Source of the DNA: an uncultured Vicinamibacteraceae bacterium
Lineage (GTDB): Bacteria; Acidobacteriota; Vicinamibacteria; Vicinamibacterales; UBA8438
Direction of reading: 5' to 3'
DNA: 64,000 bases
NCBI GenBank assembly: GCA_964636705.1
Contig: CAZWUJ010000013.1
Span: 25,574-89,573 of the forward strand
Each line of letters starts with the position of its first letter. The stretch's first letter is position 1. Below the pieces are notes generated by a model. The model had not been told where the DNA came from. It ran no database searches and was given only the letters and a program-made list of their open reading frames with translations. This document shows positions 1 to 64,000 of the stretch, piece after piece. Both the position numbers and the translations under genes were made by a program.

Positions 1-4
1 TAAA

Positions 5-56: not shown

Positions 57-72
57 GTGGATAATCGGTGAC

Positions 73-1188: not shown

Positions 1189-1242
1189 GGCGCCCCGTCG
1201 GCTGGACGCCACGCCCGACCGCGGCCCGCGCGCCGCGGCGCG

Positions 1243-1563: not shown

Positions 1564-1738
1564 GAATCGGTCGTCTGGATGGAGCTGGGGTTGCCTCGGG
1601 TCGGAGTAAACGCCACGACGGAGCGCCGGGTCGGATCGTATCAGACCGGCTGCGGCCCGCCCTCGGCGCCGGGCGTTCGGGGGGTCGCGTGCTAGAATCG
1701 CGGTTTGGCTCCGGCTTCACTTGAGTGAGGGATTGGCA

Positions 1739-6855: not shown

Positions 6856-6890
6856 GGTGGCTCCATCACGCGGCCGCGTTCCGGGACCGG

Positions 6891-9107: not shown

Positions 9108-9126
9108 GGAGGTCAGTCTGCCGCAA

Positions 9127-10792: not shown

Positions 10793-10809
10793 GGGTGTAT
10801 TTCTTTTCA

Positions 10810-10836
10810 CGTAAATTGCTCATGAAGCAATTTACG
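10810..10836. promoter_or_regulatory. Perfect 11-bp inverted repeat, candidate AbiEi operator
   Basis: CGTAAATTGCT-catga-AGCAATTTACG sits in an AT-rich patch centred about 31 nt upstream of the abiEi ATG. Confidence 0.5.
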
Positions 10837-11128
10837 CAGATATTAACACACCGCCGCTACTGGCGGACGAGAACGTTCGCGTCAATCGCGCGCATGGGTG
10901 CGCCGCACGTGCGACCGAATACCCTCCTCCAGGCTCGCAAGGCTCCTGCGCACCGGAGGGCTGCTGAACACGGTCCGGTGAATGGCCAGGGACGTGATCC
11001 TCGATTCGGTCGTTGCCCTGTTCTCGTGTCCGTCGCACATTCCAAGATGGTCGCATGCATTACCCGGGTGATCAATCACCGGCGAAAGAACGCCCCCGAT
11101 GTGAGTATCATGGCGGCGGGAGTCCAAC

Positions 11129-45895: not shown

Positions 45896-46132
45896 GTCGT
45901 TACCTCTCGAACCGGAAGCCGGTCATGCACATGCTCGCCCGCCATCGAACGATACGCGAAATAGCAGGCAGCCCGGCACTCTGGTCCAGTGAACGCCCAG
46001 GCCGCACTGATCCTGCCGAGGTTTCGTTGCGATCCGGAACTGCGTCACTCAGGGTCGATGGTCGTCGCGGTAGGCTCCTTCCCCGCTGTTTGCTCTGCTG
46101 TGCCGTCCTGAGACGCGACGCGGCGCGGCTCA

Positions 46133-47449
46133 TCATTCCCCGGCCGCGTAGATCGTGAGCATGAGTTCTGCTTCGTCGACAAGGCGATATTCCGGCGTTC
46201 TCCCGGACAGTTGTTCACTGTTCTCCAGGATCAGGCGCACGCCCTCGCCGCGCCGGTCCGTGAGGGCGCGGCGGTCGGTGCCGAGCCAGGGAACCTCGGC
46301 CGGCACCGCGCACCTTGCCAGCAGGCTCATGACAACGTCGTTGCGGGTGGACTGCAAGTAGGCGAGATTCTCGACCGTCATTCCGTTCGGGATCGCACCG
46401 GGAGAGTGGAGCTCCAGCCGATTCTCGAACAACTGCAATCTGACTTTGGCCCCGTGAATCGCGTAGTCTCGATGGGCGACAGCATTGACGACGGCTTCGA
46501 ACACAGCCGTCATGTCGAAACACGGGATGTCCCTGCGCCCGAGGTCCTTGACCGCCGCCACCTTCATGTTTCTCGTGACGAAACGGCACGCACCCTCAAT
46601 CTGAGCATCCAGCGGCCCGGTGATGTCGGCGGCATCAAGCTGGTAGGGCGCCCCCGTTGCGTCCGGCCGAATCGCATCACCCCGGTAGGCGACGGCCTGC
46701 ACGTAGGCGTTCGGCAGCCAGCGGCGCGGGTCGCGCGTCCCGATGAGCACGCCAGCTACGGTGGGTCGCGCCATGCCGTCGTCATCCCGGCGCGCCAAGC
46801 CAAGCTTTGCCAGAAACGTCTCCCGATCCTCATCGGAGCGGGGCCCCCTAAAGCGCTCCCAGAGATCCGCGTCCAAGTCGTCGATCCGGGCGTTGGACAC
46901 GATCTGCTCATCAAAGCGGATGAGCCGCGTCTGGCTACGCTGCTGGAATAGCCGCGCCAGATACTCGGGAGACATGACGCGTCGTGCGCTGCCGACGCGG
47001 TACAGGTAGCCTCCGGGGCTCCGGTGCACGAAGAGACTGCGTGGCACGTCGATCCTGATGACCGGCACGTCTTCGCCCGTGGTCGTGGGAAGTTCCAGTC
47101 GCTCGATAGCGGCGGTGAGGGGTGGTTCCACCGAGTCGTGACACAACTCGTGGACGAAGCGCTCGACCGTGTCGAGGCAGTGGAGGGGAATCCCCAGCAC
47201 CTCACGCGTGCGGTCTTCGATGCCCAGAATCAGGACGCCCCCACGACTGTTGGCGAAGGCAGCCAGCTCGTCGGCCAGTGACTCCCGCCGCGGTTCGGAG
47301 ACGCGATCGCCTGTGAAGCGAACCTCCTTGCATTCGAGGAACGAGTCCTCACCCAATCGGATCTTGTCGAGCAGCTCCTTCCGACTGTCAAACACCAGCC
47401 GGCTCCCGTCCCAACCGGCGGTACCGGCGTCCGAACGCCTCGCGGCCAC
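46133..47449 (-). CDS. AlbA_2 (Schlafen-like) DNA-binding domain protein with HATPase_c_4-like C-terminus
   Basis: 'EDSFLECKEV...LADELAAFANSRGGVLILGIED' (AlbA_2) and 'AVFEAVVNAVAHRDYAIHGAKVRLQLFENRLELHSPG'. An alternative GTG start at 47395 overlaps the upstream stop (GTGTTTGA). Confidence 0.75.
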   Translation of the reverse strand: MAARRSDAGTAGWDGSRLVFDSRKELLDKIRLGEDSFLECKEVRFTGDRVSEPRRESLADELAAFANSRGGVLILGIEDRTREVLGIPLHCLDTVERFVHELCHDSVEPPLTAAIERLELPTTTGEDVPVIRIDVPRSLFVHRSPGGYLYRVGSARRVMSPEYLARLFQQRSQTRLIRFDEQIVSNARIDDLDADLWERFRGPRSDEDRETFLAKLGLARRDDDGMARPTVAGVLIGTRDPRRWLPNAYVQAVAYRGDAIRPDATGAPYQLDAADITGPLDAQIEGACRFVTRNMKVAAVKDLGRRDIPCFDMTAVFEAVVNAVAHRDYAIHGAKVRLQLFENRLELHSPGAIPNGMTVENLAYLQSTRNDVVMSLLARCAVPAEVPWLGTDRRALTDRRGEGVRLILENSEQLSGRTPEYRLVDEAELMLTIYAAGE

Positions 47450-50243: not shown

Positions 50244-50299
50244 CCGCTCCCCAAGCTCTCGCGGCCCGCGCCCGCAACAAGCTCTCCGCGCATCGCCAT
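50240..50299 (-). other. Possible 19-codon leader ORF overlapping the PHP-ATPase start (ATGA)
   Basis: ATGGCGATGCGC...GGATGA encodes 'MAMRGELVAGAGRESLGSG'. The first 11 nt and 22 upstream nt are shared with the small ORF at 57444. Confidence 0.3.
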
Positions 50300-50321
50300 G
50301 TCACAACGATAGCCGATGCCG

Positions 50322-50597
50322 TTATCTTGAGCGCCTTGCAAGGGATCGTTCGCGCTGAGTAGGCGTGAATCGCAACAGTGCACTCCGCCTCATGCAAACG
50401 ACGACCTTCTCGTCTCGATAGTCATCACCGGCTGCGGCCAGAGCATCCCGTCGATTGAACTCGAGCGCCTCAGCAAGAGCATCGGCAAGGCTCTGCCGCA
50501 ATTCCTCGTGGGTGCGTTCCTGGCAGTTGACGCTCGGCTCTTCGTTGACGCACGTCTCCTCGGTCTGTCCCTCCACGTGCAGCAGCAACCGGCTCAC
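50322..50597 (-). pseudogene. Chimeric ORF made of a DUF4276 N-terminal stub joined to a HicB/UPF0150-like fragment
   Basis: 'SRLLLHVEGQTEETCVNE' is the DUF4276 start. It is followed directly by 'CQERTHEELRQSLADALAEALEF', which resembles a HicB-type fold. Confidence 0.35.
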
Positions 50598-51080
50598 GGC
50601 ACGGGCCCGTTCTCGTGATCTTCACGCATTGACCGTCCGCCGAACTGGTTCTTCTCCCACAGTTGACCGAGGCTGTAGTCCTCCAGCCACGTCTCCAGCG
50701 CGGCGCCGTCAAGCCGGGTGAATTGTGTCTGCCCTCCCGCACGTTTAGCCACGAGGACGTCCTCCGGTCGGAAGTGATCCAGTAGCAGCGGCGACTGGGT
50801 CGCCTACACGACCTGGGTCCTGAACCGAAGCGAACCATCGGAAAGGGACGATGCAGCGAAGTAAGCGTCCGACGTTTGATGTTTCCATTCGAGACGAATC
50901 GTGTCTTCGTTGAGGGCCAGCGGCTCCAGGCGGAAATCATCGAAGAAGGGCGCAACAAGCTGGACGGTCCGCCGGATCAGAGCGTAGCAATCGGCGTGCT
51001 TTAGGGACAGGGATTGGCGTCAGAGGCAAGCGCTCGATGCACTTGATGCTCCTGAATCCTTCTACGGTGATGCAGTCGGC
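50594..51080 (-). pseudogene. Fragments of an AAA_15/21-type ATPase, the usual DUF4276 partner
   Basis: Pieces lie in different frames: 'ITVEGFRSIKCIERLPL', 'FRLEPLALNEDTIRLEWKH...SLSDGSLRF' and 'SPLLLDHFRPEDVLVAKRAGGQTQFTRLD...WLEDYSLGQLWEKNQFGGR'. There is an internal TAG, and Walker A is missing. Confidence 0.5.
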
Positions 51081-51115
51081 ACCGTCGCTGCGGACCTCCC
51101 CGGTGGTCGGGTAAG

Positions 51116-51263
51116 AGCGGTTGCGCCGTTCGTAGGCGACCTGGACGGGGCTCTGCGCGGACCGGTCCATCACCGACCGGAGCTCGGCCGTCGGGGTGTT
51201 CTTGCGCGACGCCTCCTCGTGCTTCAGAGTCGCGACGATCTTGTGGGACGGCCTCTTGGGCAT
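51116..51263 (-). pseudogene. N-terminal stub of a type III-like DNA methyltransferase
   Basis: 'MPKRPSHKIVATLKHEEASRKNTPTAELRSVMDRSAQSPVQVAYERRNR' resembles the conserved N-terminus of adenine-specific mod methylases. Homology stops after about 49 codons. Confidence 0.45.
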
Positions 51264-51283
51264 GCGGGCAGGACCACGGACGC

Positions 51284-51499
51284 TCAGACGGCCCTATAGG
51301 AGCGTACGGGCAAGGCGCGGGTTTCGACCGTGGCCAGATCGTGCTTCGCGGCGGCGCCGTCGATATCGAACCCCACGACGTTTCCCTCGGCGTCGAGATC
51401 GACGTTGATCCCGGCGGACACTTCACGTGTTTCCACGCCAGGGCCGGCCTTGAGCTCGAAGTACAGACTGTCGGTTTCGGGGTAGTAGTGAAGCTTCAT
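51284..51499 (-). CDS. DUF2283-domain protein
   Basis: 'MKLHYYPETDSLYFELKAGPGVETREVSAGINVDLDAEGNVVGFDIDGAA'. Confidence 0.75.
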   Translation of the reverse strand: MKLHYYPETDSLYFELKAGPGVETREVSAGINVDLDAEGNVVGFDIDGAAAKHDLATVETRALPVRSYRAV

Positions 51500-51572
51500 G
51501 ACGCATCCCTTCGAAAGCCACGGTCGAAGCACGCATTGTGGATTGTCTCAAAGTCGTCCAGGGTCCGACTGA

Positions 51573-52154
51573 TGGCCGCGCCTGTGCTTCAGAAGCCCCG
51601 CCGTCTCCGGCGTCACCTTCCAGGAGTTCGGATCCGGAAGCTCGCGCCACCGATCCACGCGCGGCCTGCGTGGCCTCGTCGAAGACCAAGCCGCGCCCGC
51701 CGACGTCCCGCTCATCCTCGCGCTCATCCGGGAGCTGGCCGAGTACGAGAAGCTCCTGGACGCGGTCGTAGCGACAGAGGAACTGATCCATGTCGCGCTC
51801 TTCAGCGACACGCCGCACGCCGAGGCGGTAGTCGCCCGCGTCGGCGACGAATCGGTCGGTTTCGCCCTCTACTTCCGCACCTTCTCGACCTTCCTCGCGC
51901 GCCCCGGCCTGTACCTGGAACACCTCTGCGGCCGCCCGGCGCACCGCGGCAACGGCTACGGCCGGCGGCTGCTCGTGCACCTTGCCCGCATCGCCGTCGA
52001 CAGCGGCTGCGGCCGGTTCGAGTGGTCCGTCCTTGACTGGAACGAGCTGGCGCAGGCTACCTACCGGCGGGCTGGCGCGGTGCCGATGGAGGAGTGGACT
52101 GTCTGGCGGCTTACCGGGGAGCCGTTGCGGAAACTGGCCGACGAGGCGGATTGA
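51573..52154 (+). pseudogene. GNAT paralog without a canonical start codon
   Basis: From 51702 to the stop at 52152-54 it is colinear with the GNAT at 44719-45171 (constant offset of 6983 nt). The open frame upstream has no ATG or GTG. Motif A is altered ('LEHLCGRPAHRG' versus 'LEDLYVRPAHRG'). Confidence 0.55.
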
Positions 52155-52179
52155 GGGCGAGCCTGGTGGCAGACTCTCG

Positions 52180-52331
52180 TCAAGCAGAGCGCGCACGAGT
52201 CAGGACGGAGTCCCGGGCGCTGGCGAGAACCGCAAGGGCCTGCGCCCTGGTCACCGACGGGAATTGGTCGAGGAACTCTTCGAGCGACTCGCCGCCCTCC
52301 AGGTAATCGAACAGCGTCCGGGCCGGCACCG
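52180..52331 (-). pseudogene. 3' remnant of a DUF433 gene plus the first codons of a DUF5615-like partner
   Basis: 'PARTLFDYLEGGESLEELLDQFPSVTRAQALAVLASARDSVLTRARSA*'. The overlapping GTG at 52196 opens 'VRALLDESLPPGS', which then runs into antisense GNAT. Confidence 0.45.
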
Positions 52332-52489
52332 GCTCGCTCTCAACGTGGCCAGCCTCTCTCGGATGTCCCGAGCCACTTCATCGACTTCGCGCGCCACTCG
52401 GGGCTCGCGTCCAAGCTCGCGCTCCAGAGCCGTAGTCAGGGGCAACAGGAGATCGGCGGCCGGCGACGCCTGAATTGGAACGCAACTCC

Positions 52490-52775
52490 GGAAGCGCAAG
52501 GACGGCCTCGACGTCGCGCTCGCACGCTGACTGATCACCGAGACCGATGAGCGCTTTGGCCCGAATCAGGTGGCCCCGCAGTCGCTGTGCCGGCGATCCT
52601 CTGTCCCGTCGTTCGACCAACAGTCCGGCCGTTTCGGCGGCCTTCTCGTACTGCCGGTTCTCGATCTCAATCTCTGCTCGCCTCAGCAGCGCGTCCTTGA
52701 CCTTCACACCGAGCGCTGGCGACGCGCTCTCTCCGAAGCGGCGGACCACCTCGTCGTAGGCCCTCAGCGCCTTCT
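52490..52775 (-). pseudogene. TPR-like protein fragment
   Basis: 'ALRAYDEVVRRFGESASPALGVKVKDALLRRAEIEIENRQYEKAAETAGLLVER...LIRAKALIGLGDQSACERDVEAVLAL' has no start and is fused out of frame to the HicB fragment. Confidence 0.3.
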
Positions 52776-52789
52776 TCCTGCATTGCGAC

Positions 52790-53044
52790 GTAGAGCGCCC
52801 CCTTGACCGCGACGTGAACCGGGACCGCAACAAGCACCTGTCCCGACTCCAAAGGACTCGGTGCGGGAATCTCAGCGCGGTCCACGATGCGTGCGCCGAT
52901 GGTTTCCGCAAGACAATCGGCGGCCATCGCAAGGGCATCGTCTCGATCCTCGCCCTGCGTGATTGCATCCGGCAGGTCCGGGAACGTTACCGTATAGCGA
53001 CCGTCGAGTTCGCGTTTCAGATGTGCCGGGTAAGCGAAATCCAT
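52790..53044 (-). pseudogene. HicB-family antitoxin, N-terminal domain only
   Basis: 'YPAHLKRELDGRYTVTFPDLPDAITQGEDRDDALAMAADCLAETIGARIVDRAEIPAPS' is present. The expected C-terminal DNA-binding part is replaced by unrelated sequence. Confidence 0.5.
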
Positions 53045-53087
53045 GTCGGTTTACCAATGGCCACGATTCACGCCGGCGAAAGCGATC

Positions 53088-53391
53088 TCACCCGCGCCGC
53101 CGGTGTGCATCATTCATCAATATGGTACGTATCCGTACTACATCAAGCGGCGGGGACTTGCGGCAACGGTACTGAGCGCGAATGGACTCGATGACCCCGC
53201 AGCGCCTGCGAAGGACTGAGCGGGTCCGCGCGGATGGCTCGGGTGACCTGTCAGTAGCGCTCCTGAAGCACGTGGACCGACACGGCCAGGCCGCCTTCCC
53301 GCAGTAGGCGCTACGCCCTGCGCCGCTTCTCGGCATCCTCGGCGGACGGACTCGCGGCGTAGATCAGGACGTTGATGTCAACGAACCGAAC
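53088..53391 (-). pseudogene. VapC-type PIN toxin pseudogene
   Basis: 'VRFVDINVLIYAASPSAEDAEKRRRA*RLLREGGLAVSVHVLQERY*' has in-frame stops at 53311-13 (TAG) and 53251-53 (TGA), then a frameshift. The first codon is GTT, which is not a start codon. Confidence 0.6.
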
Positions 53392-53674
53392 GCCGGTCGT
53401 GCAGAGCTTCGCGACTGAGATTGTCGGCCGCCCTGAATCCGCTACGGGTCGCGCAGATATCTTCGAAGATCTCGTCCAACAACCGCCCTCGGCGTTCGCC
53501 CTCGGTCTCCGCGTCCGGCCCGCGCGCACCGCTTTCGTCGGAACCGTCCCGAACGAGACGTTCGAGGAAGTCCCGCACGAGTGCCGACACGGAGGTGTCC
53601 AACTCCGCAGCGCGAATGCGGGACTGCCGATACGTGTCGTCGTCCACCGACACCGTGATGTTCCTCATCGGCAA
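53378..53674 (-). CDS. Ribbon-helix-helix (CopG/VapB-like) antitoxin
   Basis: 'MRNITVSVDDDTYRQSRIRAAELDTSVSALVRDFLERLV'. Its stop overlaps the beginning of the PIN pseudogene. Confidence 0.65.
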   Translation of the reverse strand: MPMRNITVSVDDDTYRQSRIRAAELDTSVSALVRDFLERLVRDGSDESGARGPDAETEGERRGRLLDEIFEDICATRSGFRAADNLSREALHDRRSVR

Positions 53675-53787
53675 AGCCTCACAGTTTCAGCGTATCGCAG
53701 GAGCGGAGCAGCACATCTGCCTGCCTGCCTGGGCGGACCGAGAATGCCGCGGGGCGACCTCGGCGGCCCGAGAGGTCGCGGGCAGCT

Positions 53788-53976
53788 TCATACCGCGATG
53801 GCCTCCTCCCGAACGAGAAGCAACCGGATCACGCGCGGCGCCCTGTCCTTGTCGAAGTGACAGCGCACGGCGTCTCTCGCCATCTCCTTCAGATCCTCCC
53901 AGTTCTCTCCCTGCGTGCAGATGCTGTAGCCGAGCGCCCTCCTGTCAGTCATTGGCCACTCCGTTGCGCTTGTCAT
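53788..53976 (-). CDS. Small HicB/UPF0150-like protein, N-terminally short
   Basis: 'GYSICTQGENWEDLKEMARDAVRCHFDKDRAPRVIRLLLVREEAIAV' resembles the small HicB-like family but lacks about 15 N-terminal residues. Confidence 0.45.
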   Translation of the reverse strand: MTSATEWPMTDRRALGYSICTQGENWEDLKEMARDAVRCHFDKDRAPRVIRLLLVREEAIAV

Positions 53977-54013
53977 CGCGCCGAGTCAGACCCACCGGCC
54001 ATTCGCGCAGCGT

Positions 54014-55102
54014 CTACAAGGCAAAGCAGAAGTCGTGCTCCTCGAAGCGCGACACCTTCGAGCCGCGAAACACGTTCGCCTGCGTCTTGCCGACTTCGGT
54101 CGTCACGCCATCGTCGACGAGTTGAACGTCGCGCCCCAGACCAAGAGTGAGCGACTGCAACAAGCCGGCGCGAAGTTCCAACTTCTGCAAGCGGCGTCCG
54201 CCGATTCGAATCACTAGCCGTGCGCGTGCCGCCAGCAGAGGCGCCAGCCCCCGCATCGACGCCTGGATGAACGTCCAGTAGTTCTCCGGGTTGTAGTGCC
54301 GGTCATCCCCGCGACCGCGGGGCACGAGCGGCTCGCCGCCCAGAAACCAGAGGCGCAGCCACTGGTCCTCCCGGTAGTTCGTGGTGTCGAGGTACGGCGG
54401 CGAGGTGATTACGTCGGTGACACGGCCCTCAAGGGAGGGGAACGCTGCAGAAACCCGGCGAGCGTCCGCTTGAACGACCACAGCGGAACCATCCGGAGGT
54501 CGGGTCCGAAAGCGGTAATCGAGCATCCTTTCGAGGATTTCGAAGACATCCCGCGGCGGAGGCTTGTACTCCCGCTCAGTCCACCACCGAACCGAGTAGT
54601 CGGGTTTGGTGCTGATCGTTCGCGGCATGCGGTTACTGAAGCAGTTGGGTGATCGGTGGGATTCGCCGTGCAGCGCCCCGAGGCATAGCGCCGCAATGAA
54701 ACGATCGTCCTTCCGATTGCGCCAGTCCAGGACGGAACGCAGATAGCGCACCTGCAACAGCGTTTCCCGATGGAAGCAGAGTTCGAAGAACCGACCGAGA
54801 TCCCCCTGCCACGCGCCGTCGTTCGGCTCGCCGCATCCGCGACGAAGCTCGCCCAGGCGCGCCCGGGCGCCCGACAGCGCGGGCGGATCACCCTTCGCGC
54901 CGGAGATACACACTGCCACTGGATTCAGGTCCGCGCCGGCCGACTCCCGTCCCTGCAACAGCGCCTGAAACACGGTGGTTCCTCGCCCGCTGTACGGGTC
55001 AAAGACGACCCCGTCGTGCGGACTCGCGACAAGGTGCTTCTCGACGAACGTCTCAGGGAACATCGCGAAGTACGGACAGATCGAATGGAATCTATGCCTC
55101 AT
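54014..55102 (-). CDS. DNA methyltransferase (N6-A/N4-C type, motif I before motif IV)
   Basis: AdoMet motif 'VFDPYSGRGTTVFQAL' near the N-terminus and catalytic 'VITSPPYLD' about 190 residues later. The start overlaps the upstream stop (ATGA). Confidence 0.75.
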   Translation of the reverse strand: MRHRFHSICPYFAMFPETFVEKHLVASPHDGVVFDPYSGRGTTVFQALLQGRESAGADLNPVAVCISGAKGDPPALSGARARLGELRRGCGEPNDGAWQGDLGRFFELCFHRETLLQVRYLRSVLDWRNRKDDRFIAALCLGALHGESHRSPNCFSNRMPRTISTKPDYSVRWWTEREYKPPPRDVFEILERMLDYRFRTRPPDGSAVVVQADARRVSAAFPSLEGRVTDVITSPPYLDTTNYREDQWLRLWFLGGEPLVPRGRGDDRHYNPENYWTFIQASMRGLAPLLAARARLVIRIGGRRLQKLELRAGLLQSLTLGLGRDVQLVDDGVTTEVGKTQANVFRGSKVSRFEEHDFCFAL

Positions 55103-56097
55103 GCCGCCGCTCCCGTCCGGCTGCGATAGTCCGAGACCCAGCGCGCGGCCTCCGCCAGCCGATCGTACCCTTCGATCGCAACGCCTGCGTCAACCAACCC
55201 CGCGGCCTCCTCCACGCGACGCGGAACCCGCAACCGGTGCAGCACGTTGCCCATCACGCGAACATCGTCCACGAACTGATTGTCGGCCGTTGCGAACGGT
55301 ACAACCATATAGGGGATGAATTCGGTCACCGGCTGCGTCCCGAACCATCGGCTCTTGAACGCACCCAGATGCCCCTTCAGCGACTTCTCCCTTGCGTTCC
55401 GGCCCGTCGCGACCTGCGCGGCGGCGAGCGGGAAGCCCGGCAGCCGATCGAGGTGCGGGCGGGCGGCAAAGACATCGACCTGATCGTCCTTCGGCAGCCG
55501 GGGCACGCCGGCCTGCGCCTCAACGCGACCGTCGCCGAGCTGCAGCCAGATCTGCTCCAGTTTGTGGAGAAACGGAGAACGGTCCGGCCGCGGAAACCCG
55601 AATGACCACGCATGCCCCTGCACCTCCGCCGCCATGGCCGCAGTTGCGAAGAACTGGAAGTACTCCCGCAGACGTGGCACCTCGGCATCGCCTGGATGCA
55701 GGTCCGAACCCTCGAGTATCGGCGTCACTGCCCGCAGATTGGACAGCACGAGGCTGAGCACATACGCGGTCTGCCCGAACGACTCCTCATTCAACTCGCA
55801 GGTCAGAACATCGCCGCGACCATCGAGCACGAACGGATACGCCGTGCCGAGTGCGTCCCGCCGCGTCTGGATCCGGGACGCGGCGCTGCATACGATTTCC
55901 TCCTCGCCGTCGAACATCTCGGCCTGCACGTCGACGTGATCTTCGGCTGCGCCGAGAGAGGCTGCGTTCGCGAGGTCGGACGTTCGAGCTGTACTGTCGG
56001 CGGCGAAGAAGGCGGTGAGCTCAAGATAGTCGGCGGCCAGATCGACGTCGATCGAAGAGCCGGTTACCGCGTCCGTGGGCAGGTAAAGGGCGAGCAT
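55099..56097 (-). CDS. Unknown 332-aa protein, possible nuclease-fold effector
   Basis: No family recognised. 'PKDDQVDVFAARPH...AAAQVATGRNAREK' loosely recalls a D...(D/E/Q)xK nuclease core, but the lysine is not evident. Coupled to both neighbours by overlapping start and stop codons. Confidence 0.6.
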   Translation of the reverse strand: MLALYLPTDAVTGSSIDVDLAADYLELTAFFAADSTARTSDLANAASLGAAEDHVDVQAEMFDGEEEIVCSAASRIQTRRDALGTAYPFVLDGRGDVLTCELNEESFGQTAYVLSLVLSNLRAVTPILEGSDLHPGDAEVPRLREYFQFFATAAMAAEVQGHAWSFGFPRPDRSPFLHKLEQIWLQLGDGRVEAQAGVPRLPKDDQVDVFAARPHLDRLPGFPLAAAQVATGRNAREKSLKGHLGAFKSRWFGTQPVTEFIPYMVVPFATADNQFVDDVRVMGNVLHRLRVPRRVEEAAGLVDAGVAIEGYDRLAEAARWVSDYRSRTGAAA

Positions 56098-57245
56098 CAG
56101 TCCGACGAACGTGCGTGCCGGCGCTTCTTCGCCATGCGCGCATGCACGGCTTCGGCCGTCTCCTTGATGTCCTCCGCGATGTCAAGGAGTGACTGGTCCC
56201 GCCCGTCGTAGGCTCGCAGCGAGCCGGCTGCGTCCCCGATAGCCTCCCGCGCGCGGAGCAGCGACGCCGTGAACCGCGTGTCCACGGATTCTGTGCTTGC
56301 GTGCGCCTCGTCCAGATCGCCCGTCTGCTTCAGGACGTGTAGCGACTCGGCGTGGACGAGCACTTCACCGAGACGCTTGATGTCAGGGTTCTGCTTTTGG
56401 ACGACCGGCGCCACGTCGTCGGCCTTCGAGCCGTATATCCAGACCAGCACCTGCTTCAGCCGAGGGAGTCTGTCCCGCGGGACCTGATCCGGCGTCGGAT
56501 CATGGCGCGACCACGCGGCTTCCAGACCCAGGTAGTCCATGTACTGAGAGCGCGAGAGCGCCGTGTACAGATGTGAGAAACCGAACTTCGGAGGGTATCG
56601 GTCCTCGATATCGAACAGCCCTTGCTCTCGCGCCTGGTCCAGCACGTAGATGGCCGACACCATGCGTTTGATCGTGTCGTGCCTATCGCCGATGGCCTGC
56701 GCTATCTGTTCCAGGCCGATCCCATTCTCGCGGCCTTTCTGGTACCAGTCCGCCGCAAACCGAGCCTTCGCGTAGGCGTCCCATTTCTGCGGACCGTTGA
56801 TGTGCTTGAAGCCGATGAAGGCGCGAGCCCGTTGCCGGCTTGCGACGGGATACACGGAAACCTCGTCGAGCGTCTGCTGGACCCCGTCGTCGATCTCCGG
56901 AACGGTGATACGCGTGCTCTCAGCGGCTGCGATCCTTCGCACCAGGGCCGGTTCCCGCAGGAGACGCAGCGTTGCAAGCCGCCGGTTGCCCTCCAAGACA
57001 ATCAGCGCGTCATCGTCGGCGTCGTCTTCCATCACGACGAGGGGCTCGATGTCGAGGTAGCCGTTGGCGGAGATTGACTGCAGGAGCTCGTCGAGCTCCG
57101 CCGACCGATAGAGCCGCGCGATGATCCATTCGTCGGACGCATCCGTTGCCTCGCCGACCAGCCGCGGATTCCCCCGGTCCAGCCGCAGCCGCTCGACCGG
57201 AACCTTCGCGGTCGTCTCAAGTACCATGCTCACCCCGCTGTGCAC
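56097..57245 (-). CDS. ParB/Srx N-terminal-domain protein
   Basis: 'RLDRGNPRL', 'NGYLDIEPLVV' and 'LIVLEGNRRLATLRLL' (the ParB GxxR box), followed by a helical C-terminal region. An alternative start lies at 57227. Confidence 0.75.
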   Translation of the reverse strand: MHSGVSMVLETTAKVPVERLRLDRGNPRLVGEATDASDEWIIARLYRSAELDELLQSISANGYLDIEPLVVMEDDADDDALIVLEGNRRLATLRLLREPALVRRIAAAESTRITVPEIDDGVQQTLDEVSVYPVASRQRARAFIGFKHINGPQKWDAYAKARFAADWYQKGRENGIGLEQIAQAIGDRHDTIKRMVSAIYVLDQAREQGLFDIEDRYPPKFGFSHLYTALSRSQYMDYLGLEAAWSRHDPTPDQVPRDRLPRLKQVLVWIYGSKADDVAPVVQKQNPDIKRLGEVLVHAESLHVLKQTGDLDEAHASTESVDTRFTASLLRAREAIGDAAGSLRAYDGRDQSLLDIAEDIKETAEAVHARMAKKRRHARSSD

Positions 57246-57444
57246 CGTCGCCTGACGGTGGTTCCTCCGCTTCCTGCCCGCGCGCGACCCGCCGCGGTGG
57301 GTAGCTCACGTACTCGATACCGGACTCGGCCTCCCGTTTCCGGATGCGTCGGAAGATCTCCTTGACGTCGTTGCCGCACTCCGCAGCGAACTTGTCGCGT
57401 ATCGCAAGCACTTCAGCCACGACAGGATCATCCCGCATCGCCAT
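57217..57444 (-). CDS. Small hypothetical protein (75 aa) heading the ParB operon
   Basis: 'MAMRDDPVVAEVLAIRDKFAAECGNDVKEIFRRIRKREAESGIEYVSYPPRRV'. It overlaps the ParB-like start. Confidence 0.5.
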   Translation of the reverse strand: MAMRDDPVVAEVLAIRDKFAAECGNDVKEIFRRIRKREAESGIEYVSYPPRRVARGQEAEEPPSGDGAQRGEHGT

Positions 57445-57479
57445 GTCACAAAGATAGCCGATGCCGGCGGCCGCTCGGA

Positions 57480-57730
57480 CTCGGAACACCTTCATCACCT
57501 CGTCGCCGAGGTGATTGATGACCTGGACGGCGATGCGGCCCGACTCGGGGCGGCCGAACGGACGCCAGATGTCGCTGTGGAGCGAACGACCACGCGTCGG
57601 CGTTGATCTCGGCCTTGAGCGCCTTGTAGGGGTCGTTCGCAGCGAGGAAGTAGGCGTACCGGACGACGAAGCTCTCCTCGTCGTAGTCGGTGTCGCTGAA
57701 CCAAAACGCGATGCCGTCGATGTGGGCGGC
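57480..57730 (-). pseudogene. C-terminal remnant of a type III-like DNA methyltransferase
   Basis: 'IDGIAFWFSDTDYDEESFVVRYAYFLAANDPYKALKAEINADAWS', then after a frameshift 'RPFGRPESGRIAVQVINHLGDEVMKVFRV'. This is the typical C-terminus of mod-type methylases. Confidence 0.5.
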
Positions 57731-57744
57731 TAGCGTCGACCTGC

Positions 57745-57885
57745 CGCGAGGCGGAAGAGACCCGTTCTACGAGCGATTGAATCGTGTTCTTGACGAGGCG
57801 GGCCTCGACGACTTTGTCGAGAGCGCGTGCGCGAAGTTCTACGCGGGCGGGGTGGGCCGTCCGAGTCTGGCTCGGGCCGTGAATC
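57745..57885 (+). mobile_element. IS5/IS1182-type transposase N-terminal fragment (InsH-N/DUF772-like)
   Basis: 'RDPFYERLNRVLDEAGLDDFVESACAKFYAGGVGRPSLA'. No catalytic domain and no recognisable inverted repeats. Confidence 0.5.
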
Positions 57886-58371
57886 AGTTGAAGGAGGCCT
57901 TACAAGCTGAGGTCCTGCGCCGCGTTCTTGAAGCCCCGCCGGCATTCCTGGAGCAAATCGTCGTAGGTCTTCTGAATCAAAATGGGCTACGGCGGAGGTG
58001 ATGCTTCCATGGGCCGCGTCACCGGCGGCGCCGGCGACGGTGGGATCGACGGAACGATCCGGGAGGACAAGCTGGGACTGGATGAAGTCTACGTTCAGGC
58101 AAAGAAGTACGCCGACGGAAAGACCGTCGGTGAAGCCGAACTGCGGAACTTTGCGGGGGCCATCGACGCAGCGGGCACGACCAAGGGCGTATTCGTCACT
58201 ACGTCCAGATTCACGGACGCCGCGAAGCACTGCGTGGCGCGCAGTCCGAAGCGGATCGTCTTGATCGACGGGGAGGAACTGGCGCGTCTCATGGTCGAGC
58301 ACGGCGTCGGCGTGCGGCTCAGGGATCGTTACGAGGTCAAGAGGATCGACGAGGACTACTTCGACATGTGA
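57886..58371 (+). pseudogene. Mrr-family restriction endonuclease, N-terminally truncated and frameshifted
   Basis: 'PPAFLEQIVVGLL' is in one frame and 'MGYGGG...GDGGIDGTIREDKLGLDEVYVQAKKY...KGVFVTTSRFT...IVLIDGEELARLMVEHGVGV' is in another. The Mrr N-terminal winged-helix is absent. Confidence 0.65.
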
Positions 58372-58396
58372 TCCGGAACCAAGCCGGTCGTTCTCT

Positions 58397-59035
58397 CTAC
58401 CACAAGTCCTTCCGCAGCTGCCTCACGAGCCTGAACGTCCGACGGGCCGGCCGCGCCTTGAACATCTCAACGCCACAACTCTCACGAAGGGCGGATTCCA
58501 TCTCGTTGCGAGAAATGTCAGATTCGGCTCCTACGATTACTTGCTTGAGCGCAAGTTCGTCGGACAACCGGACGAAGTAGTGCTCGCCATCTCTCTTGCA
58601 CTTATGAAGCTGAACAACTGCGCGCCGTTCTTTTTCGTACCTCCAGTGCCAGAACTTCTTCAGAAACAGGCCCTGGGCGAAGTCCTGAGTTAACATTTCC
58701 CTCCGCGGAGGCGGGAATTCTCGCTTAGGAACATACACGACCGGGTGCACAAAGTCTTCGGGAACGTCGAATCCCAGGCAGACACCCTTGTGTTTGTCGG
58801 CATAGTGAGCCCACATCAGTGGGCTTCGCCACGTTTCGCTAAAGCAGACCAGTCCGTGGGTTCGTCCAAACCGGTGCTTTGTGTTCCGCAAGACCTGTCG
58901 AACACTCGGGTCGGAGAGTTTCACTGCAAGGAACTCAAAGGGGTCGTTCAGGTTCTCAATACACGAGACCTTCAGGCGTCTCTTTCGTAGATTCTCCACA
59001 CCGTAGTGCTTGCAGACGAAATGGTAAACGCGCAT
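58397..59035 (-). CDS. DUF2971-family protein
   Basis: 'VYHF...ENLNDPFEF', 'LVCFSETWRSPLMWAHYADKHKGVCLGF'. GGAGGA lies upstream of the ATG. The gene sits in a visibly lower-GC patch. Confidence 0.7.
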   Translation of the reverse strand: MRVYHFVCKHYGVENLRKRRLKVSCIENLNDPFEFLAVKLSDPSVRQVLRNTKHRFGRTHGLVCFSETWRSPLMWAHYADKHKGVCLGFDVPEDFVHPVVYVPKREFPPPRREMLTQDFAQGLFLKKFWHWRYEKERRAVVQLHKCKRDGEHYFVRLSDELALKQVIVGAESDISRNEMESALRESCGVEMFKARPARRTFRLVRQLRKDLW

Positions 59036-59319
59036 GAGTCATGTCCTCCCCGCTTCGCCACCCCGAGCCGAGGCACCCACTGGCTCTGCTGACTCAACGC
59101 ACGGGCGATCACATGCGCTCGACCAACCAACGCCTGGAACTGTGCCTTCAGCACGTCCTTCAAGTCCGGCTCCATCGTGTAGACCGTCCGATTGATCATG
59201 GACCGGGCCGACGAAACGCTGAACCTCGACGTCGACCCGGTGCAGGTGCGCCGGTGCGTAGCAAGACTGGCGATGGAGTAGCATGAGAGACGAACGGGAT
59301 GGGCATCGAGGGAGAAACA

Positions 59320-59559
59320 ATGACGAAGAGGAACACAGCCAAGTATCATTTCAAGGACGGCAATTTCATCGTGCACACTGGAATCACGACTGACCTTGAG
59401 AGGCGTGAAGCTGATCACCAACGAGAGTCAGGTGTGGACAGCGGCCACATCACGAAGGTTGGCCGCCTCACGACTCCTGAAGCAGCGAAAGAGTGGGAGC
59501 GAGAGCAACGAGACGCCGGAAAGCCAACCGAAGGGTACCGAACACGTCCCAGAAAATGA
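59320..59559 (+). CDS. Small GIY-YIG-like protein
   Basis: 'KYHFKDGNFIVHTGITTDLERREADH' resembles the GIY...YIG...R...E core. GGGAGA lies upstream of ATG 59320. Confidence 0.4.
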   Translation: MTKRNTAKYHFKDGNFIVHTGITTDLERREADHQRESGVDSGHITKVGRLTTPEAAKEWEREQRDAGKPTEGYRTRPRK

Positions 59560-59565
59560 CCTGCG

Positions 59566-61713
59566 CTAATCACCGACTCGAAGACGGTGTCGCTCATCAG
59601 CGGCATTCCCCGCACGCAGATCGTCCAGAAACTCCGAGCAAGGATCGACGCCGGTCACCAGTAGCCGGTCGCGTGCACGGGTGCACGCGACGTAGAGCAG
59701 GTGTCGTTCGGTGCCGTAAACCTCCTCGAGATCGGCGTCATCGCCAACGCGTTCGATCCGGGTCTGTAGCGGAATGACCTCGTCGTCGCAGGCGGCTACC
59801 GCGACCGCCCTGAACTCCAGCCCCTTGGCGAGGTGCATCGTGCCGACCGCGACCGATCCGGACACGCCGCCGGAACCGCCGTCGAGCCGCACAGCCCGCA
59901 TATCCGCCGCCTGCACAGCGGAGAGCGCTCGCTCGATCTGCTCCGACGACCTGACGAAGACGCCGATAGCTTGCGGCGCGTAGCCCTCGTCCCGTCGTGC
60001 TCGAAGCCAGTCCGCGATGGCCTCCGTCTCGTCCTCCGGCGAATCGAACGTCCTGACTTCGGGTGCCGGTCCGTTGAACACCGAGACCGTCGCTCCTCGA
60101 TGCTCCGCATCGCCGTCGACGTCTGCCAGCTCGGCCGGCAAGAGGCGGTCGGCCTGACGCCGGATCTGATGCGACGTACGGTAGTTGATCCGCAGCGTAT
60201 GGGATCGCCCGCGCACGTCGACGCCGAGCGCCCTCCAGGAGAACGGCGTCTGGAAGATCCGCTGTCCGAGATCACCGGCAAAGAACAAGCTGTTCGGCCG
60301 GCTCCCACCGAGGGCCGCCAGAAACCGCAACTCTGGGACGCCGACATCCTGCGCCTCATCGATCACGCAGAAGTCGAACGGGGGATGCGCTGCCTCTGTC
60401 ATCTTCGCCGCCACCCGCGCGAACATGCCGGGCTCCGTCAGTTTCCCGTGTTCGGCGAGCGCAGACCGGACCCGCAAGAAGATCGACCAGAGCAACTCCC
60501 GCTGCTTCTCGGCCAAGCGGGTCTTGCGGCCGAGCCGCTGCACGTCGCGATAGTCCTCCCAACTCGCGAGCTGCCAGGCGTCGACCACAACGCTCCATTC
60601 CGTCCAGAGAAAGTGCGCACCGAAACGATGGCCTTCGACCTCGGCTGCCGCTTGCCGGAGCAGTGCCCGTGTCTCTTCGTCCGCCGCCAAGTTGAGGCGG
60701 CCGACATTCGCCGTGTAGAGACGCCGACCGATGTCGCTCATCGAATGCACTTCGAGACGCTCGGCGATCTTCGGCTCGTTCCCGATGAGGCGCCTGAGAC
60801 GCGTCCGTAACGCGCCGGCCAGCGCATCCGAGAAGGTCGCGAGCAGCACGCGGCTCTCCGGATGTGCGCGCGCCAAATGCACTGCCCGATGGAGCGCCAC
60901 GATGGTCTTGCCGGTGCCGGCCGAACCCGAGAGACGAGCCGGGCCGGTGTAGTCCCGTTCGACGAGTTGTCGCTGGGCAGGGTGCAGGAAGACGGTCCAC
61001 TTCTCCCACGGGTAGTCCAGCGCGCGCTCCAGCGATTCCACGTCCGCCATCACCCGGAAGCGGCGCTGCGCATCGGGATGTGCAAACGGATCCGCGCCCG
61101 CTACGGCAGGCGCCGGACGGTCAGGCGCACCGCCGGTCGCAAGCTGCAGGAGCGCCTCGGCAGCCTCGCCCGGCAGGTGATCGGCAAGGTCGAGCAGCGT
61201 GTCCTCGGTCGCCGCCCGCACGTCACCGAGCCACTCGACCGGCACGCCGTAGCCCAGTAGATCGTCGTCCGACGCGCCGGCGAAGATTGCCGTACCCGAC
61301 GCCGTTGGTCCGCCTGCCGCCGCGCCCCGACTGGGCGCCGGGAGGTTCACCTCCACATACCGCGGTACCGGAATCTCACGTACCGTCTCACGGATCTCGA
61401 CGAGTTGGGCGGCGCCTGTCGTCGGATGCCGTTCCAGCCGCCGCCGTTCGGCCCACTGATAGGCGGCGTCGTGATGGTCGACGTAGCAGAGCAGGAAGCT
61501 GGAGGCTGTCCGGTGGACGATCAGTCGGATGTCGCGACTGACCCGAGCGGACCAGAAGTCCTTGTCCTTCGCGCGGTCGACTTGGTGCAGCTTCAGCCCC
61601 GGATGCGCCGGGTTCATCTGCAGGTCGAAAGCCGCGGTCTTGACCGCCTTCTGCTCGTCGCCGGTCAGCTTGGCGAGGCTGTCGGTGAAGGTGTCGGCGA
61701 TGCGGAACTGCAT
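59566..61713 (-). CDS. UvrD/Rep-like SF1 helicase with a RelE/ParE-like N-terminal domain
   Basis: N-terminus 'FWSARVSRDIRLIVHRTASSFLLCYVDHHDAAYQWA'. Helicase motifs 'LSGSAGTGKT', 'CVIDEAQD', 'FFAGDLGQRIF', 'NYRTS', 'TMHLAKGLEFRAV' and 'LLYVACTRARDRL'. The start overlaps the S8 peptidase stop (TGATG). Confidence 0.8.
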   Translation of the reverse strand: MQFRIADTFTDSLAKLTGDEQKAVKTAAFDLQMNPAHPGLKLHQVDRAKDKDFWSARVSRDIRLIVHRTASSFLLCYVDHHDAAYQWAERRRLERHPTTGAAQLVEIRETVREIPVPRYVEVNLPAPSRGAAAGGPTASGTAIFAGASDDDLLGYGVPVEWLGDVRAATEDTLLDLADHLPGEAAEALLQLATGGAPDRPAPAVAGADPFAHPDAQRRFRVMADVESLERALDYPWEKWTVFLHPAQRQLVERDYTGPARLSGSAGTGKTIVALHRAVHLARAHPESRVLLATFSDALAGALRTRLRRLIGNEPKIAERLEVHSMSDIGRRLYTANVGRLNLAADEETRALLRQAAAEVEGHRFGAHFLWTEWSVVVDAWQLASWEDYRDVQRLGRKTRLAEKQRELLWSIFLRVRSALAEHGKLTEPGMFARVAAKMTEAAHPPFDFCVIDEAQDVGVPELRFLAALGGSRPNSLFFAGDLGQRIFQTPFSWRALGVDVRGRSHTLRINYRTSHQIRRQADRLLPAELADVDGDAEHRGATVSVFNGPAPEVRTFDSPEDETEAIADWLRARRDEGYAPQAIGVFVRSSEQIERALSAVQAADMRAVRLDGGSGGVSGSVAVGTMHLAKGLEFRAVAVAACDDEVIPLQTRIERVGDDADLEEVYGTERHLLYVACTRARDRLLVTGVDPCSEFLDDLRAGNAADERHRLRVGD

Positions 61714-64000
61714 CAAGTCTCTATCTCTATCGGCACACCGATCTGGTTCGCGACCTCCGTCCGCAGGTCCACGTTTACGTCTGGTGCACGTATGCTGACG
61801 ATCAGCGCATATCGCGCGGCCTGGTCGTACCTCTCGAGGGCCTGGCGGGTCTTCCACCAGCCCACCGCGGGGTAGACGGCGAGACACCCCCGACTCGCAA
61901 GGTCGGCTGCGCTACCTCGCCAGATGTCGCCATGCAGTGAACCTCGGTGACGGGTCTGCTTTCCAATAAGCCACTCGGGATCGTTGCCGTGCCCGGCGTG
62001 GGTCCCCTCCTCCTCGTTCCGTGCGGCCGCATTGATCCGCGTCCGGAAGTCATCGACCGACTCGTGCGGGCGCTTGACGTCGAAACGGAGACCATGGGAC
62101 TCGTAGCGGTACCGCGAACGCATCCCACGCCGTGACGGGTTCGGCTCGATGAAATAAGACAGGGTGATTCGCATCTCCACCTGCGTTGCTCCGAGGCCCT
62201 CCAGCGCTTCGCGTGGCCAAGGCAGGTTGTAGAGATGCATGTCCCGAAGCTTCGGTTGGTTCGATCCTTCACGCCGAAACGGATGCAGACGCTCCTCGAT
62301 CACCATCGCCAACGAGTTGTCGACACTCCAGAGCGCACGCTCAAGATCTGGAACTCCGAAGCCACAGCGCTGTACCAGATTTCGGTAGTGAGCCTTCGTG
62401 GCCGCGCCGGTTGTGGGCAACGAGGCTCGTCGCATGGCCTCGGTCCACTCCGCCGAATGCACGATCAGAGCGCGGACGGTCTCGGGCCACAACGTCGGAT
62501 AGGCGACCATGATTCGGGCAGCAAGCCGCGCAGCCAGCGCCATCGCCGCGCTCGTCGCGTTGGTCGTAGTGAAGATCCGTTCTGCGGGACGGTAATGCGT
62601 CGTCAGTAGGCTGAGGCTGTCCGCCGTCACTGCCGAGAGCAAGTCCTTGGCCGCATTGCCGCCTTCGAGCACCACGTCCGGCTTCAGCGGCCAGTACTTC
62701 TCCCAGGTAAGCGAGGTGGTGCTGAACGGGCTCAGACCTCCTCGTGGTGCGACCGGTGCGTAGTTTGCTGTGTCGGGCTCAGTAATCCGAACCAGTTCTG
62801 TGAACGCCCCTACCGTCAGTGCATTCCAAGCCTGCGCGGGATCATGCACGCCGTCGGTGTCATTCGAATACGGGTAGTTGCGCCATGCATCTGAATCCTG
62901 GACGTTCCCGGCCGACTGGACAAGCAGGCGCGGACGCTCGCCTGCCGCATCGGCGTCGGCCGCCAGTGCGTCCACGGCTGCCGACCACGCCGACGGGCGG
63001 CCTCGGTCGCGGTCGTCACGAGCCGTAACGGCCATGCCGAATACTCGAGGTCGCCTCGGAGCAGCGATCTCCGGACGCGCGACGGCTTCGACGGTGACGA
63101 AGCCGTGGTGCCGCGAGTCTCCGCCGCCCCCTGGCCCCGGTAGCAGCTTGACCGATTCCAGGCGGTGGTCGAGCACGACGATATCGTTGGCGTCGACAAG
63201 CGTCGTCAGATCCCCGGCAAGTGCGACGCCGGCCATCTGCGTCCCGTGGCCGTGCGTATCGTTCGTGCCCCAACCCGGCTCGACGGTGTGCAGATCTCCG
63301 GGGTCAAGTGCTCGCTGCAGAAATCGGTGACCGCGATTGACTCCTGTGTCGAGCAAACAAACGCGCGGCACCTCGTCAGCATCGGCAGGGAACTGGGTCC
63401 GCGCAAGCAGATCGTCGAGCCATTCCTGCTGCTCTTCGGGCCGCAGGGAGTCGAAGAACTCGGCTGTCTCCTTCGCCCGTCGAAGCTCCGCGATACTGTT
63501 GAGCGTCAGCATCGAGTGCTGCATCTGCTCCAGTGAAGCGGACACCAGTAGCACGGTGCGCTCGGGAAAGACCAACTCGCCTGGAACAAGGCGCATCCCC
63601 TGGGCTTCTGCTTGTCCTCGAAAGGACTCGACTACCGCCTGCCGGTCTCTCCGAACCGGCAGCCACACTTCCCACCAGAGTGAGCCTTCATCCTCTGTCG
63701 GGAACTCCGTAGCCGTGTCGGTCCACAGTGCTCGAAGACTCGCAGCACGAATCTCCTGAATCGCATCGACGAGCTTCCTGTTGTCGCGAGCGCGTCCGAT
63801 GCTGTCCCGCCGTTCTTCCAGATAGTGACGGACGAGCCGCTCGAAGTGATCGAGCTTTCCGTCGGGCACGAAAACGGTTGCGAACGTTCGATTGCCGGCT
63901 CGCCGGACGTTGAGCAGCTCTATCCCAGACCGCTCGCGCGCCAAGCTCTCGAAGGCCGGCTCGATGTCGGGAAAGCTCTGGAACTCGACGCGGAGGCCCA
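61713..64000 (-). CDS. S8 (subtilisin-like) serine peptidase with a large N-terminal domain; 5' end outside the window
   Basis: Catalytic 'CLLDTGVNRGH', 'HGHGTQMAG', 'SAGN' and 'NATSAAMALAA'. The frame stays open upstream of the TTG at 63944 to the window edge. Confidence 0.8.
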   Translation of the reverse strand, partial: GLRVEFQSFPDIEPAFESLARERSGIELLNVRRAGNRTFATVFVPDGKLDHFERLVRHYLEERRDSIGRARDNRKLVDAIQEIRAASLRALWTDTATEFPTEDEGSLWWEVWLPVRRDRQAVVESFRGQAEAQGMRLVPGELVFPERTVLLVSASLEQMQHSMLTLNSIAELRRAKETAEFFDSLRPEEQQEWLDDLLARTQFPADADEVPRVCLLDTGVNRGHRFLQRALDPGDLHTVEPGWGTNDTHGHGTQMAGVALAGDLTTLVDANDIVVLDHRLESVKLLPGPGGGGDSRHHGFVTVEAVARPEIAAPRRPRVFGMAVTARDDRDRGRPSAWSAAVDALAADADAAGERPRLLVQSAGNVQDSDAWRNYPYSNDTDGVHDPAQAWNALTVGAFTELVRITEPDTANYAPVAPRGGLSPFSTTSLTWEKYWPLKPDVVLEGGNAAKDLLSAVTADSLSLLTTHYRPAERIFTTTNATSAAMALAARLAARIMVAYPTLWPETVRALIVHSAEWTEAMRRASLPTTGAATKAHYRNLVQRCGFGVPDLERALWSVDNSLAMVIEERLHPFRREGSNQPKLRDMHLYNLPWPREALEGLGATQVEMRITLSYFIEPNPSRRGMRSRYRYESHGLRFDVKRPHESVDDFRTRINAAARNEEEGTHAGHGNDPEWLIGKQTRHRGSLHGDIWRGSAADLASRGCLAVYPAVGWWKTRQALERYDQAARYALIVSIRAPDVNVDLRTEVANQIGVPIEIET

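Follow-up and report, generated by a model that had tools for sequence, protein, structure and literature searches.

A probable IetAS system lodged in a restriction-modification operon that ends with a RelE-fold SF1 helicase gene

Two overlapping genes at the end of the window

The DNA considered here is a 64 000-nt stretch (the window) of contig CAZWUJ010000013.1 from an uncultured Vicinamibacteraceae bacterium. Two genes situated at its end, both on the minus strand, are the subject of this report: a gene of an IetS-like S8 serine protease (61713..64000), 5′-truncated by the end of the window, and a gene of a 715-aa UvrD-like helicase of superfamily 1 (SF1) (59566-61713). The first-pass annotation had taken the two for a protease-helicase pair not described before. 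We compared the locus with two sets of relatives. On the helicase side, one genome per species was scanned; this gave 80 loci from many bacterial phyla (among them Acidobacteriota, several classes of Pseudomonadota, Planctomycetota, Chloroflexota, Bacillota, spirochaetes, Nitrospirota and Bdellovibrionota), with helicases 62-91% identical to the one of the window. On the IetS side, metagenome contigs were scanned with an alignment of the IetS subfamily, which gave another 80 loci. The closest relatives of the window locus, designated L001, L002, L004 and L007, have helicases 85-93% identical to the window's; L001 matches the window from 64000 to 59617 with 90% nucleotide identity (blastn).

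The protease frame is open from 64000 to the TGA at 61715-61713, so that 761 of about 834 aa are visible. An N-terminal domain of the Y4kK_N type is followed by the subtilase domain and then by a conserved C-terminal domain; the Y4kK_N label comes only from the precomputed Pfam annotation of relatives, and a direct Pfam scan of the protease N-terminus did not report this family. Pfam Peptidase_S8 covers residues 212-548 (E=9.6e-55). The PADLOC IetS model PDLC02198 (795 positions) matches residues 36-737 at model positions 88-762 (E=1.5e-35), and the protein is 91% identical to the IetS of L001. Since full-length IetS relatives have 834 aa, ~74 residues are missing here; the N-terminal domain, first given as ~200 aa, is ~285 aa long in the full-length relatives. 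The catalytic set had been described correctly: Asp (LLDTGV, codon 63348-63350), His (GHGT, codon 63246-63248), oxyanion Asn (SAGN, codon 62904-62906) and Ser (ATSAA, codon 62550-62552), as read from the sequence, are intact, and they are invariant across 12 relatives.

The TGA of the protease gene and the ATG of the helicase gene (61713-61711) have one base in common. This TGATG overlap (61711..61715, within the sequence GAGACTTGATGCAG), already noticed at first pass, can be read directly from the DNA.

Assignment of the second gene to UvrD-like SF1 helicases is borne out as well. Both Pfam UvrD-helicase and UvrD_C match, and the SF1 motifs are in place: Walker A GSAGTGKT (60904-60927), DEAQD (60346-60360), motif V (59812-59841) and motif VI (59671-59694). 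The start of the protein, MQFRIADTF, is kept in all homologues of the alignment; a look-up for records identical to the window helicase gave none. Three parts can be distinguished. Residues 1-110 (61384..61713) make an N-terminal domain considered below. Next come a linker and a small helical domain (60994..61383), delimited by the alignment and by models made with AlphaFold2 (AF2): residues ~111-145 are a variable low-complexity linker with a predicted local distance difference test score (pLDDT) of 28-32, and residues ~149-192 are a small conserved helical domain, LLGYGVP..EWL..LP.EAAEALL, with pLDDT 62-79. A Pfam scan of this linker and helical region gave no match. The UvrD-like SF1 core (59566..60993), supported by the alignment and both Pfam families, takes up the rest. 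The AF2 model of the full-length helicase was poor (pLDDT 57, pTM, the predicted template modelling score, 0.32).

The N-terminal part was modelled much better on its own: residues 1-125 reached pLDDT 82. When this model was compared with PDB structures by Foldseek, the best 30 matches were all toxins of the RelE, YoeB, YafQ or ParE families (probability 1.00, target template modelling (TM) score 0.50-0.76), including RelE2 (3g5o), YoeB (2a6r), RelE (3bpq), YafQ and ParE2. Residues ~1-110 of the helicase are thus predicted to have the RelE/YoeB/ParE fold, in agreement with the first reading of this segment. The signal in the sequence itself is below threshold, and it is the AF2 model and Foldseek that carry the fold assignment. 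A Pfam HigB-like toxin family matched residues 1-115 with E=0.027 and 15.3 bits against a cut-off of 27; phmmer with the same residues against PDB produced noise only; in a comparison with the family profile, RelE3 and YoeB sequences were weak (E about 0.4-1.2). Among the homologous fragments, some have a precomputed PF05015 annotation and are named RelE by JGI.

Residues R63, H80, H81, D82, Y85 and W87 of the domain are invariant, even in relatives with 32-44% identity (Thermus, Pseudanabaena). We compare these positions with the Arg and C-terminal His/Tyr found in RNases of the YoeB type, which they resemble. With RelE, YoeB, YafQ and ParE toxins the domain shares the fold (target TM up to 0.76), a conserved Arg placed on the central strand and, at its C-terminal end, a group of His and Tyr residues. 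Unlike these toxins, it is joined to a helicase of 600 aa, and no cognate antitoxin gene accompanies it.

A search of a representative library (E≤1e-30) gave 1983 clusters of the helicase family at 50% identity; the profile had come out near full-length (533 positions), and this number describes the size of the family rather than the spread of the RelE-like domain. Complete members of these clusters were almost all ~690 aa long with the N-terminal domain included. The domain was always found fused to the helicase and a stand-alone toxin of ~90 aa was not found; a database search with the N-terminal domain alone likewise returned no stand-alone toxin among the best 120 matches, only fragments of the same family. 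Two longer proteins, P0266 (1951 aa) and P0299 (2017 aa), begin with a full ~680-aa copy of the helicase and continue for ~1300 aa more; they could be true fusions or products of read-through in gene calling.

At the other end of the gene, nucleotide homology to all relatives stops at 59617 (blastn), 17 codons before the helicase stop, and we therefore place the right edge of the conserved module at the 3′-end of the helicase gene. This suggests a breakpoint of recombination or insertion inside the 3′-end of the gene (59566-59617). The last ~15 residues of the window helicase (AGNAADERHRLRVGD) match no relative.

Conserved neighbours of the protease and of the helicase

In all four closest relatives a 329-aa AAA ATPase is encoded directly upstream of IetS, and the order of genes is Res, N6_N4 methyltransferase (MTase), AAA (IetA), Y4kK_N+S8 (IetS), helicase. 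The ATPase of L001 matches the PADLOC IetA model with E=1.2e-70. IetS is a protease toxin and IetA its ATPase antitoxin (PMC13069673); according to the literature IetAS acts on its own and has anti-phage and plasmid-exclusion activity. The likeness of our genes to this system consists in an S8 protease with intact catalytic set and large N-terminal domain, and in near full-length matches to PADLOC IetS and IetA.

Among the metagenome loci with at least 700 nt upstream of IetS, IetA was directly upstream in every case (67/67); among those with at least 700 nt downstream, the helicase followed in 6 of 55. These six loci also carry restriction-modification (R-M) genes wherever the upstream DNA suffices. 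Because IetA precedes IetS in 67/67 loci and the helicase follows it in 6/55, IetA is to be regarded as the obligate partner of the protease. In the window locus, the IetA gene would lie just beyond base 64000. The initial suggestions of a link to IetAS and of an ATPase gene upstream, out of view, both agree with these counts.

The helicase keeps different company. Of the 55 helicase loci with at least 3 kb of upstream sequence, 54 have an MTase gene upstream on the same strand; further upstream, a Res of ~1030 aa was found in 36 of the 43 loci with at least 9 kb. The MTase of the relatives is ~940 aa long and matches Pfam N6_N4_Mtase and PADLOC MTase_III PDLC03632 (E=0). Their Res has a Pfam ResIII motor and a C-terminal RE_endonuc domain and scores 1319.6 bits against NCBIfam NF046055, 'BPTD_3080 family restriction endonuclease' (cut-off 800). 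The same three-gene set is present on RefSeq plasmids of Pseudomonas amygdali, Gemmobacter fulvus and Rhizobium leguminosarum, where each gene has an annotation of its own: BPTD_3080 family restriction endonuclease, site-specific DNA-methyltransferase, and UvrD-helicase domain protein or '3′-5′ exonuclease'. The helicase gene closes a module of the form res–mod–RelE-fold SF1 helicase, and is conserved in this last place. Literature searches found no published description of BPTD_3080 or of a res-mod-UvrD/RelE system.

The module has much in common with Type III R-M systems of the EcoP15I kind: the Type III model for Mod matches with E=0, and the Res of the relatives combines a superfamily 2 ResIII motor with a PD-(D/E)xK nuclease. 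In classical Type III systems mod precedes res; here, unlike in these systems, res comes first, Mod is unusually large (~940 aa) and there is a conserved third gene. REase_III models, the only ones of PADLOC to match Res, did so weakly (3e-5 to 7e-4), and the genes did not come out as a two-gene mod-res system.

Distant homologues of the helicase were seen in a related setting. In L169 (Thermus thermophilus pTthSNM3-3b, 1-10995) and in L170 (a plasmid of Pseudanabaena PCC 7367, 1-11109) a RelE-fold helicase homologue follows a giant DNA methylase and a DruE-like helicase. These homologues are 30-37% identical; the DruE-like helicases have 1840-2120 aa and match PADLOC DruE1 with 1e-96 to 1e-106. 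This position of the distant homologues lends weight to the idea that the helicase family serves methylation-based restriction systems rather than the guest genes described below.

One could think of the helicase as a stand-alone, single-gene defence protein, an effector domain joined to a UvrD-like motor in the manner of NERD-UvrD and Nhi-type proteins, which just happens to sit at the edge of a defence island. Its best PADLOC match is indeed C3a187 'NERD+UvrD' (3.3e-25), the architecture is that of an effector-like domain with an SF1 motor, and this region of the window is a defence island. Yet linkage on the same strand to one MTase family in 54/55 loci of many phyla, often with a gap of 5-9 nt or with overlapping codons, is hard to reconcile with a gene acting alone, as is the recurrence of a giant methylase and a DruE-like helicase before the 30-37%-identity homologues. 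We consider this explanation very unlikely, and keep the helicase as a member of the R-M module. In comparison with GajB and NERD-UvrD (C3a187), the protein shares the UvrD-like SF1 core and, with NERD-UvrD, an N-terminal fusion of effector type; it differs in that a RelE fold takes the place of NERD at the N-terminus, and in that there is no GajA partner.

Exchangeable cargo of the operon

The stop of the methylase gene and the start of the helicase gene are 5 nt to about 10 kb apart. Sixty mod|helicase junctions were characterized: 15 direct, 9 with IetAS and 36 with other genes, an occupancy of 45/60 (75%). IetAS is the commonest single occupant of this slot. Other cargo includes SIR2+HerA (4 loci), GmrSD/HEC-06 (3 loci), the AbiP2 reverse transcriptase (3 loci), Lamassu LmuA+LmuB (2 loci), Dsr1 (e.g. 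in L052), Hachiman HamA+HamB, a giant RT-UG10/PrimPol protein, PD-Lambda-5_A with SoFic, QatA, Septu PtuA, and OLD-type and STAND-like ATPases. Of the mechanically called open reading frames (ORFs) of at least 150 aa in the slot, 92/103 are on the operon strand.

With the helicase present in 6/55 IetS loci and IetS in 9/60 helicase loci, the proposed protease-helicase pair is not a conserved unit: a check of co-occurrence, as had been advised, found either the methylase or unrelated defence systems upstream of the helicase in the other loci. A canonical system upstream had been named as another ground for giving up the pair; in the closest relatives IetA, upstream, completes the known IetAS pair, and beyond it lie the MTase and Res genes.

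What, then, of the shared base? An overlap of the TGATG type also joins the methyltransferase gene to the helicase gene in L067, L076, L079 and L084, and Dsr1 to the helicase gene in L052. The ATG of the helicase is tightly coupled to the stop codon of whatever gene precedes it; its overlap with the protease gene therefore reflects operon architecture, not partnership. The 45 nt upstream of each helicase start, the only place where a recombination site was sought, showed no conservation except under the same upstream gene.

These observations bear on the possibility that IetA, IetS and the UvrD-like helicase form a three-component variant of IetAS, in which the helicase senses or controls the protease. 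The one-base overlap of stop and start codons would fit such a system, as would the rank of IetAS as the most frequent single occupant of the slot; a precedent is ietHAS, where the added helicase is essential and modulates toxicity (PMC13069673). In our data, though, the helicase follows only 6/55 of the IetS relatives, R-M genes being present there too; elsewhere its neighbour is the methylase itself or one of a dozen or more unrelated systems, and the same overlap is formed with the methylase and with Dsr1. We therefore find a three-component variant very unlikely. The precedent itself points elsewhere: in ietHAS the added protein is a SNF2, DrmD-like helicase encoded before ietA (PMC13069673), and it thus lends no support to a protease-helicase pairing of the present type. 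The likeness is that of an IetAS pair beside a helicase gene in one operon. We rejected the identity with ietHAS, as the gene following ietS here codes for a UvrD-like SF1 helicase that is linked in the first place to R-M genes. Taken alone, the tight gene overlap would have suggested a new protease-helicase defence system; this false call was avoided.

The cargo turns over between related modules. In the helicase tree, IetAS loci are scattered: L032 (IetAS) stands beside L052 (Dsr1), L115 (IetS) beside L047 (NsnA-like) and L087 (IetS) beside L031 (SIR2-HerA). Such scattering among loci with other cargo indicates repeated exchange. In L008 the junction of IetS 3′-end and helicase 5′-end is present as a direct repeat (540 bp at 90.7% and 254 bp at 97.6% identity; copies at 4913-5696 and 9681-10865), and between the copies lie IS3-like transposase genes and a first, truncated copy of the helicase gene; two diverged modules may have recombined here and left the repeat as a scar.

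A second slot is situated between res and mod. The gap was shorter than 160 nt in 21 of the 35 loci measured and 300-2400 nt in 14; contents include PIN, HicB and HicA genes in L006 (5416-6537) and a DUF2283 gene in L004 (3397-3612). The window has, at 51117-51569, a segment 78-84% identical to the res|mod insert of L004 (3326-3779), which holds the DUF2283 gene, and of L007 (3349-3797). The same small element of ~450 nt is therefore located inside the module in L004 and L007 and outside of it in the window.

The res|mod slot often holds toxin-antitoxin genes (PIN, HicAB), and these bring up one more explanation: that the RelE-like domain is the true toxin of an addiction module stabilizing the operon, with the preceding product (here the protease) or the helicase body as antitoxin. 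The RelE/YoeB fold and the invariant Arg and His/Tyr positions are what one would expect of such a toxin. We looked for a conserved small antitoxin-like gene upstream of the helicase and found none, the upstream neighbour varying from locus to locus; and, among about 2000 clusters, the domain is always fused to the helicase. Of the explanations weighed here we give this one the least credence, and return to the reading of a helicase that belongs to Res and Mod.

Several cassettes in the mod|helicase slot had no PADLOC match: L018 1621-3296 and L022 3373-5044 (128+423 aa in both), L013 7662-9948 (441+307 aa), L066 8146-10001 (349+268 aa), L049 8062-9984 (640 aa), L040 7411-8751 (446 aa), L021 2141-3394 and L030 7801-9969. 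The 128+423-aa pair recurs in two loci (L018, L022) and in L018 it has no Pfam family either. By 'guilt by embedding', the unmatched cassettes are candidates for new defence systems.

Relation to known systems and adjacent defence genes

We think it very probable that two systems are interleaved at this locus: the IetAS pair is embedded, as an exchangeable guest, between mod and helicase of an R-M-helicase operon. The arrangement is that of a known system, a distant subfamily of IetAS, placed in a module for which we found no published description.

Some points weigh against this view or limit it. IetA, mod and res of the window locus are predicted from relatives, as is their position upstream of 64000. 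NCBIfam IteS gave 58.7-64.2 bits against a cut-off of 900, and IteA 196.7 bits against 510; judged by sequence, the IetAS considered here is a subfamily distant from the validated one, and its activity is a predicted one. From the known IetAS this pair also differs in that the window IetS sits inside another operon, with IetA beyond the window, and in that the scores are far below the NCBIfam equivalog cut-offs. A variant of IetAS that needs a helicase does exist, namely ietHAS. The tree behind the indication of repeated cargo exchange was built quickly by neighbour joining; its terminal branches are long and it has no support values. Since guest and host are tightly coupled and have long resided together (across IetAS-bearing loci IetS is 59-85% and the helicase 63-91% identical), some functional cross-talk between them could exist. 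Finally, the role we propose below for the RelE-fold helicase is speculative.

Embedding of defence systems between the genes of another system is already known from Hma, BREX, DISARM and Type I R-M (Payne et al., bioRxiv 10.1101/2024.01.29.577857), with an occupancy of 62.7% in Hma and with 96.7% of embedded genes co-oriented across the four hosts; co-regulation and complementarity were proposed as reasons, BrxU inside BREX being the classic case (bioRxiv 10.1101/2024.01.29.577857). The present loci resemble these hosts in that self-contained systems are inserted in the same orientation into a multi-gene, methylation-based host, with 75% occupancy compared with 62.7% in Hma, and in that the cargo is diverse and changing, including GmrSD/HEC-06 and Septu. 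In contrast to the four, the host here combines a res of BPTD_3080 type with a mod of the N6/N4 class and the gene of a RelE-fold SF1 helicase. It would be a fifth type of host for embedded defence, with the slot filled in about three quarters of loci.

Other identities of the host were considered and rejected. In Hma, HmaA is a helicase, HmaB a methylase and HmaC an ATPase, and the methylase makes 5-methylcytosine (PMC8565338); the MTase here is of the N6/N4 class, and no PADLOC Hma model for Res, MTase or helicase was among the matches listed, which extended to E=5e-4 for the helicase and to 3e-7 for the MTase. Gabija was set aside as GajA is absent, the neighbours are IetS and unrelated genes, and GajB models match in patches. 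MADS is represented only by weak P-loop and MTase matches to mad8 and mad2 (about 1e-7). For DISARM and BREX there were no matches for Res.

The res-mod-guest-helicase unit would be transcribed from upstream as one operon; a promoter-like site was not found on the minus strand within 59000-64000, which is weak evidence. With one upstream-driven operon, guest and host would be co-regulated and would move together. Judged by homology, Res and Mod would restrict unmethylated DNA. One could speculate that the R-M system has in the helicase an accessory or back-up subunit, with the SF1 motor engaging and processing cleaved DNA ends or sensing stalled restriction complexes, and that the RelE-like domain of the helicase might cleave RNA or shut down translation once restriction fails.

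We offer as a tentative proposal, with more doubt than confidence, that res, mod and the RelE-fold helicase make up a very widespread three-component defence system not described before. In such a system, conserved flanks would carry exchangeable cassettes, the helicase would couple DNA restriction to an RNA-targeting back-up of the RelE type, and its relatives would serve Druantia-like loci (DruE with a methylase). The breadth is suggested by about 2000 helicase clusters at 50% identity, by the many phyla and by the plasmids. In these methylation-based restriction systems the third gene encodes a strictly conserved fusion of a RelE-type fold with an SF1 helicase, a feature open to experimental test.

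Downstream of the helicase gene, the region 46000-59560 of the window is a defence island with G+C content of 0.60-0.65 as compared with ~0.69 in the rest of the window. On the minus strand it has a Ppl homologue (47388-50243, PADLOC 2e-122), an ORF similar to short prokaryotic Argonautes (46133-47449, 1.3e-16), a HicB-like gene (52667-53044), an RHH antitoxin gene (53378-53674) and a PDC-S31/DUF2971 gene (58397-59035). Between 54014 and 57245, also on the minus strand, three genes with overlapping stops and starts form an operon: a ParB-like gene (56097-57245), of which only the N-terminal half matches PD-Lambda-5_A (6e-23), a gene of a 332-aa protein with no family match (55099-56097), and a gene of an N6/N4 methyltransferase of Type II class (54014-55102). 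This operon may be a PD-Lambda-5-related variant that contains a methylase.

On the plus strand, at 57690-58371, we observed a Mrr-type Type IV restriction enzyme gene with only the C-terminal 129 aa in frame. The in-frame part matches Mrr_cat and PADLOC mREase_IV (6.8e-44) and is preceded by a 103-aa ORF in another frame, so the gene appears to be disrupted; by eye, the start of this ORF looks like the N-terminus of an insertion sequence transposase.

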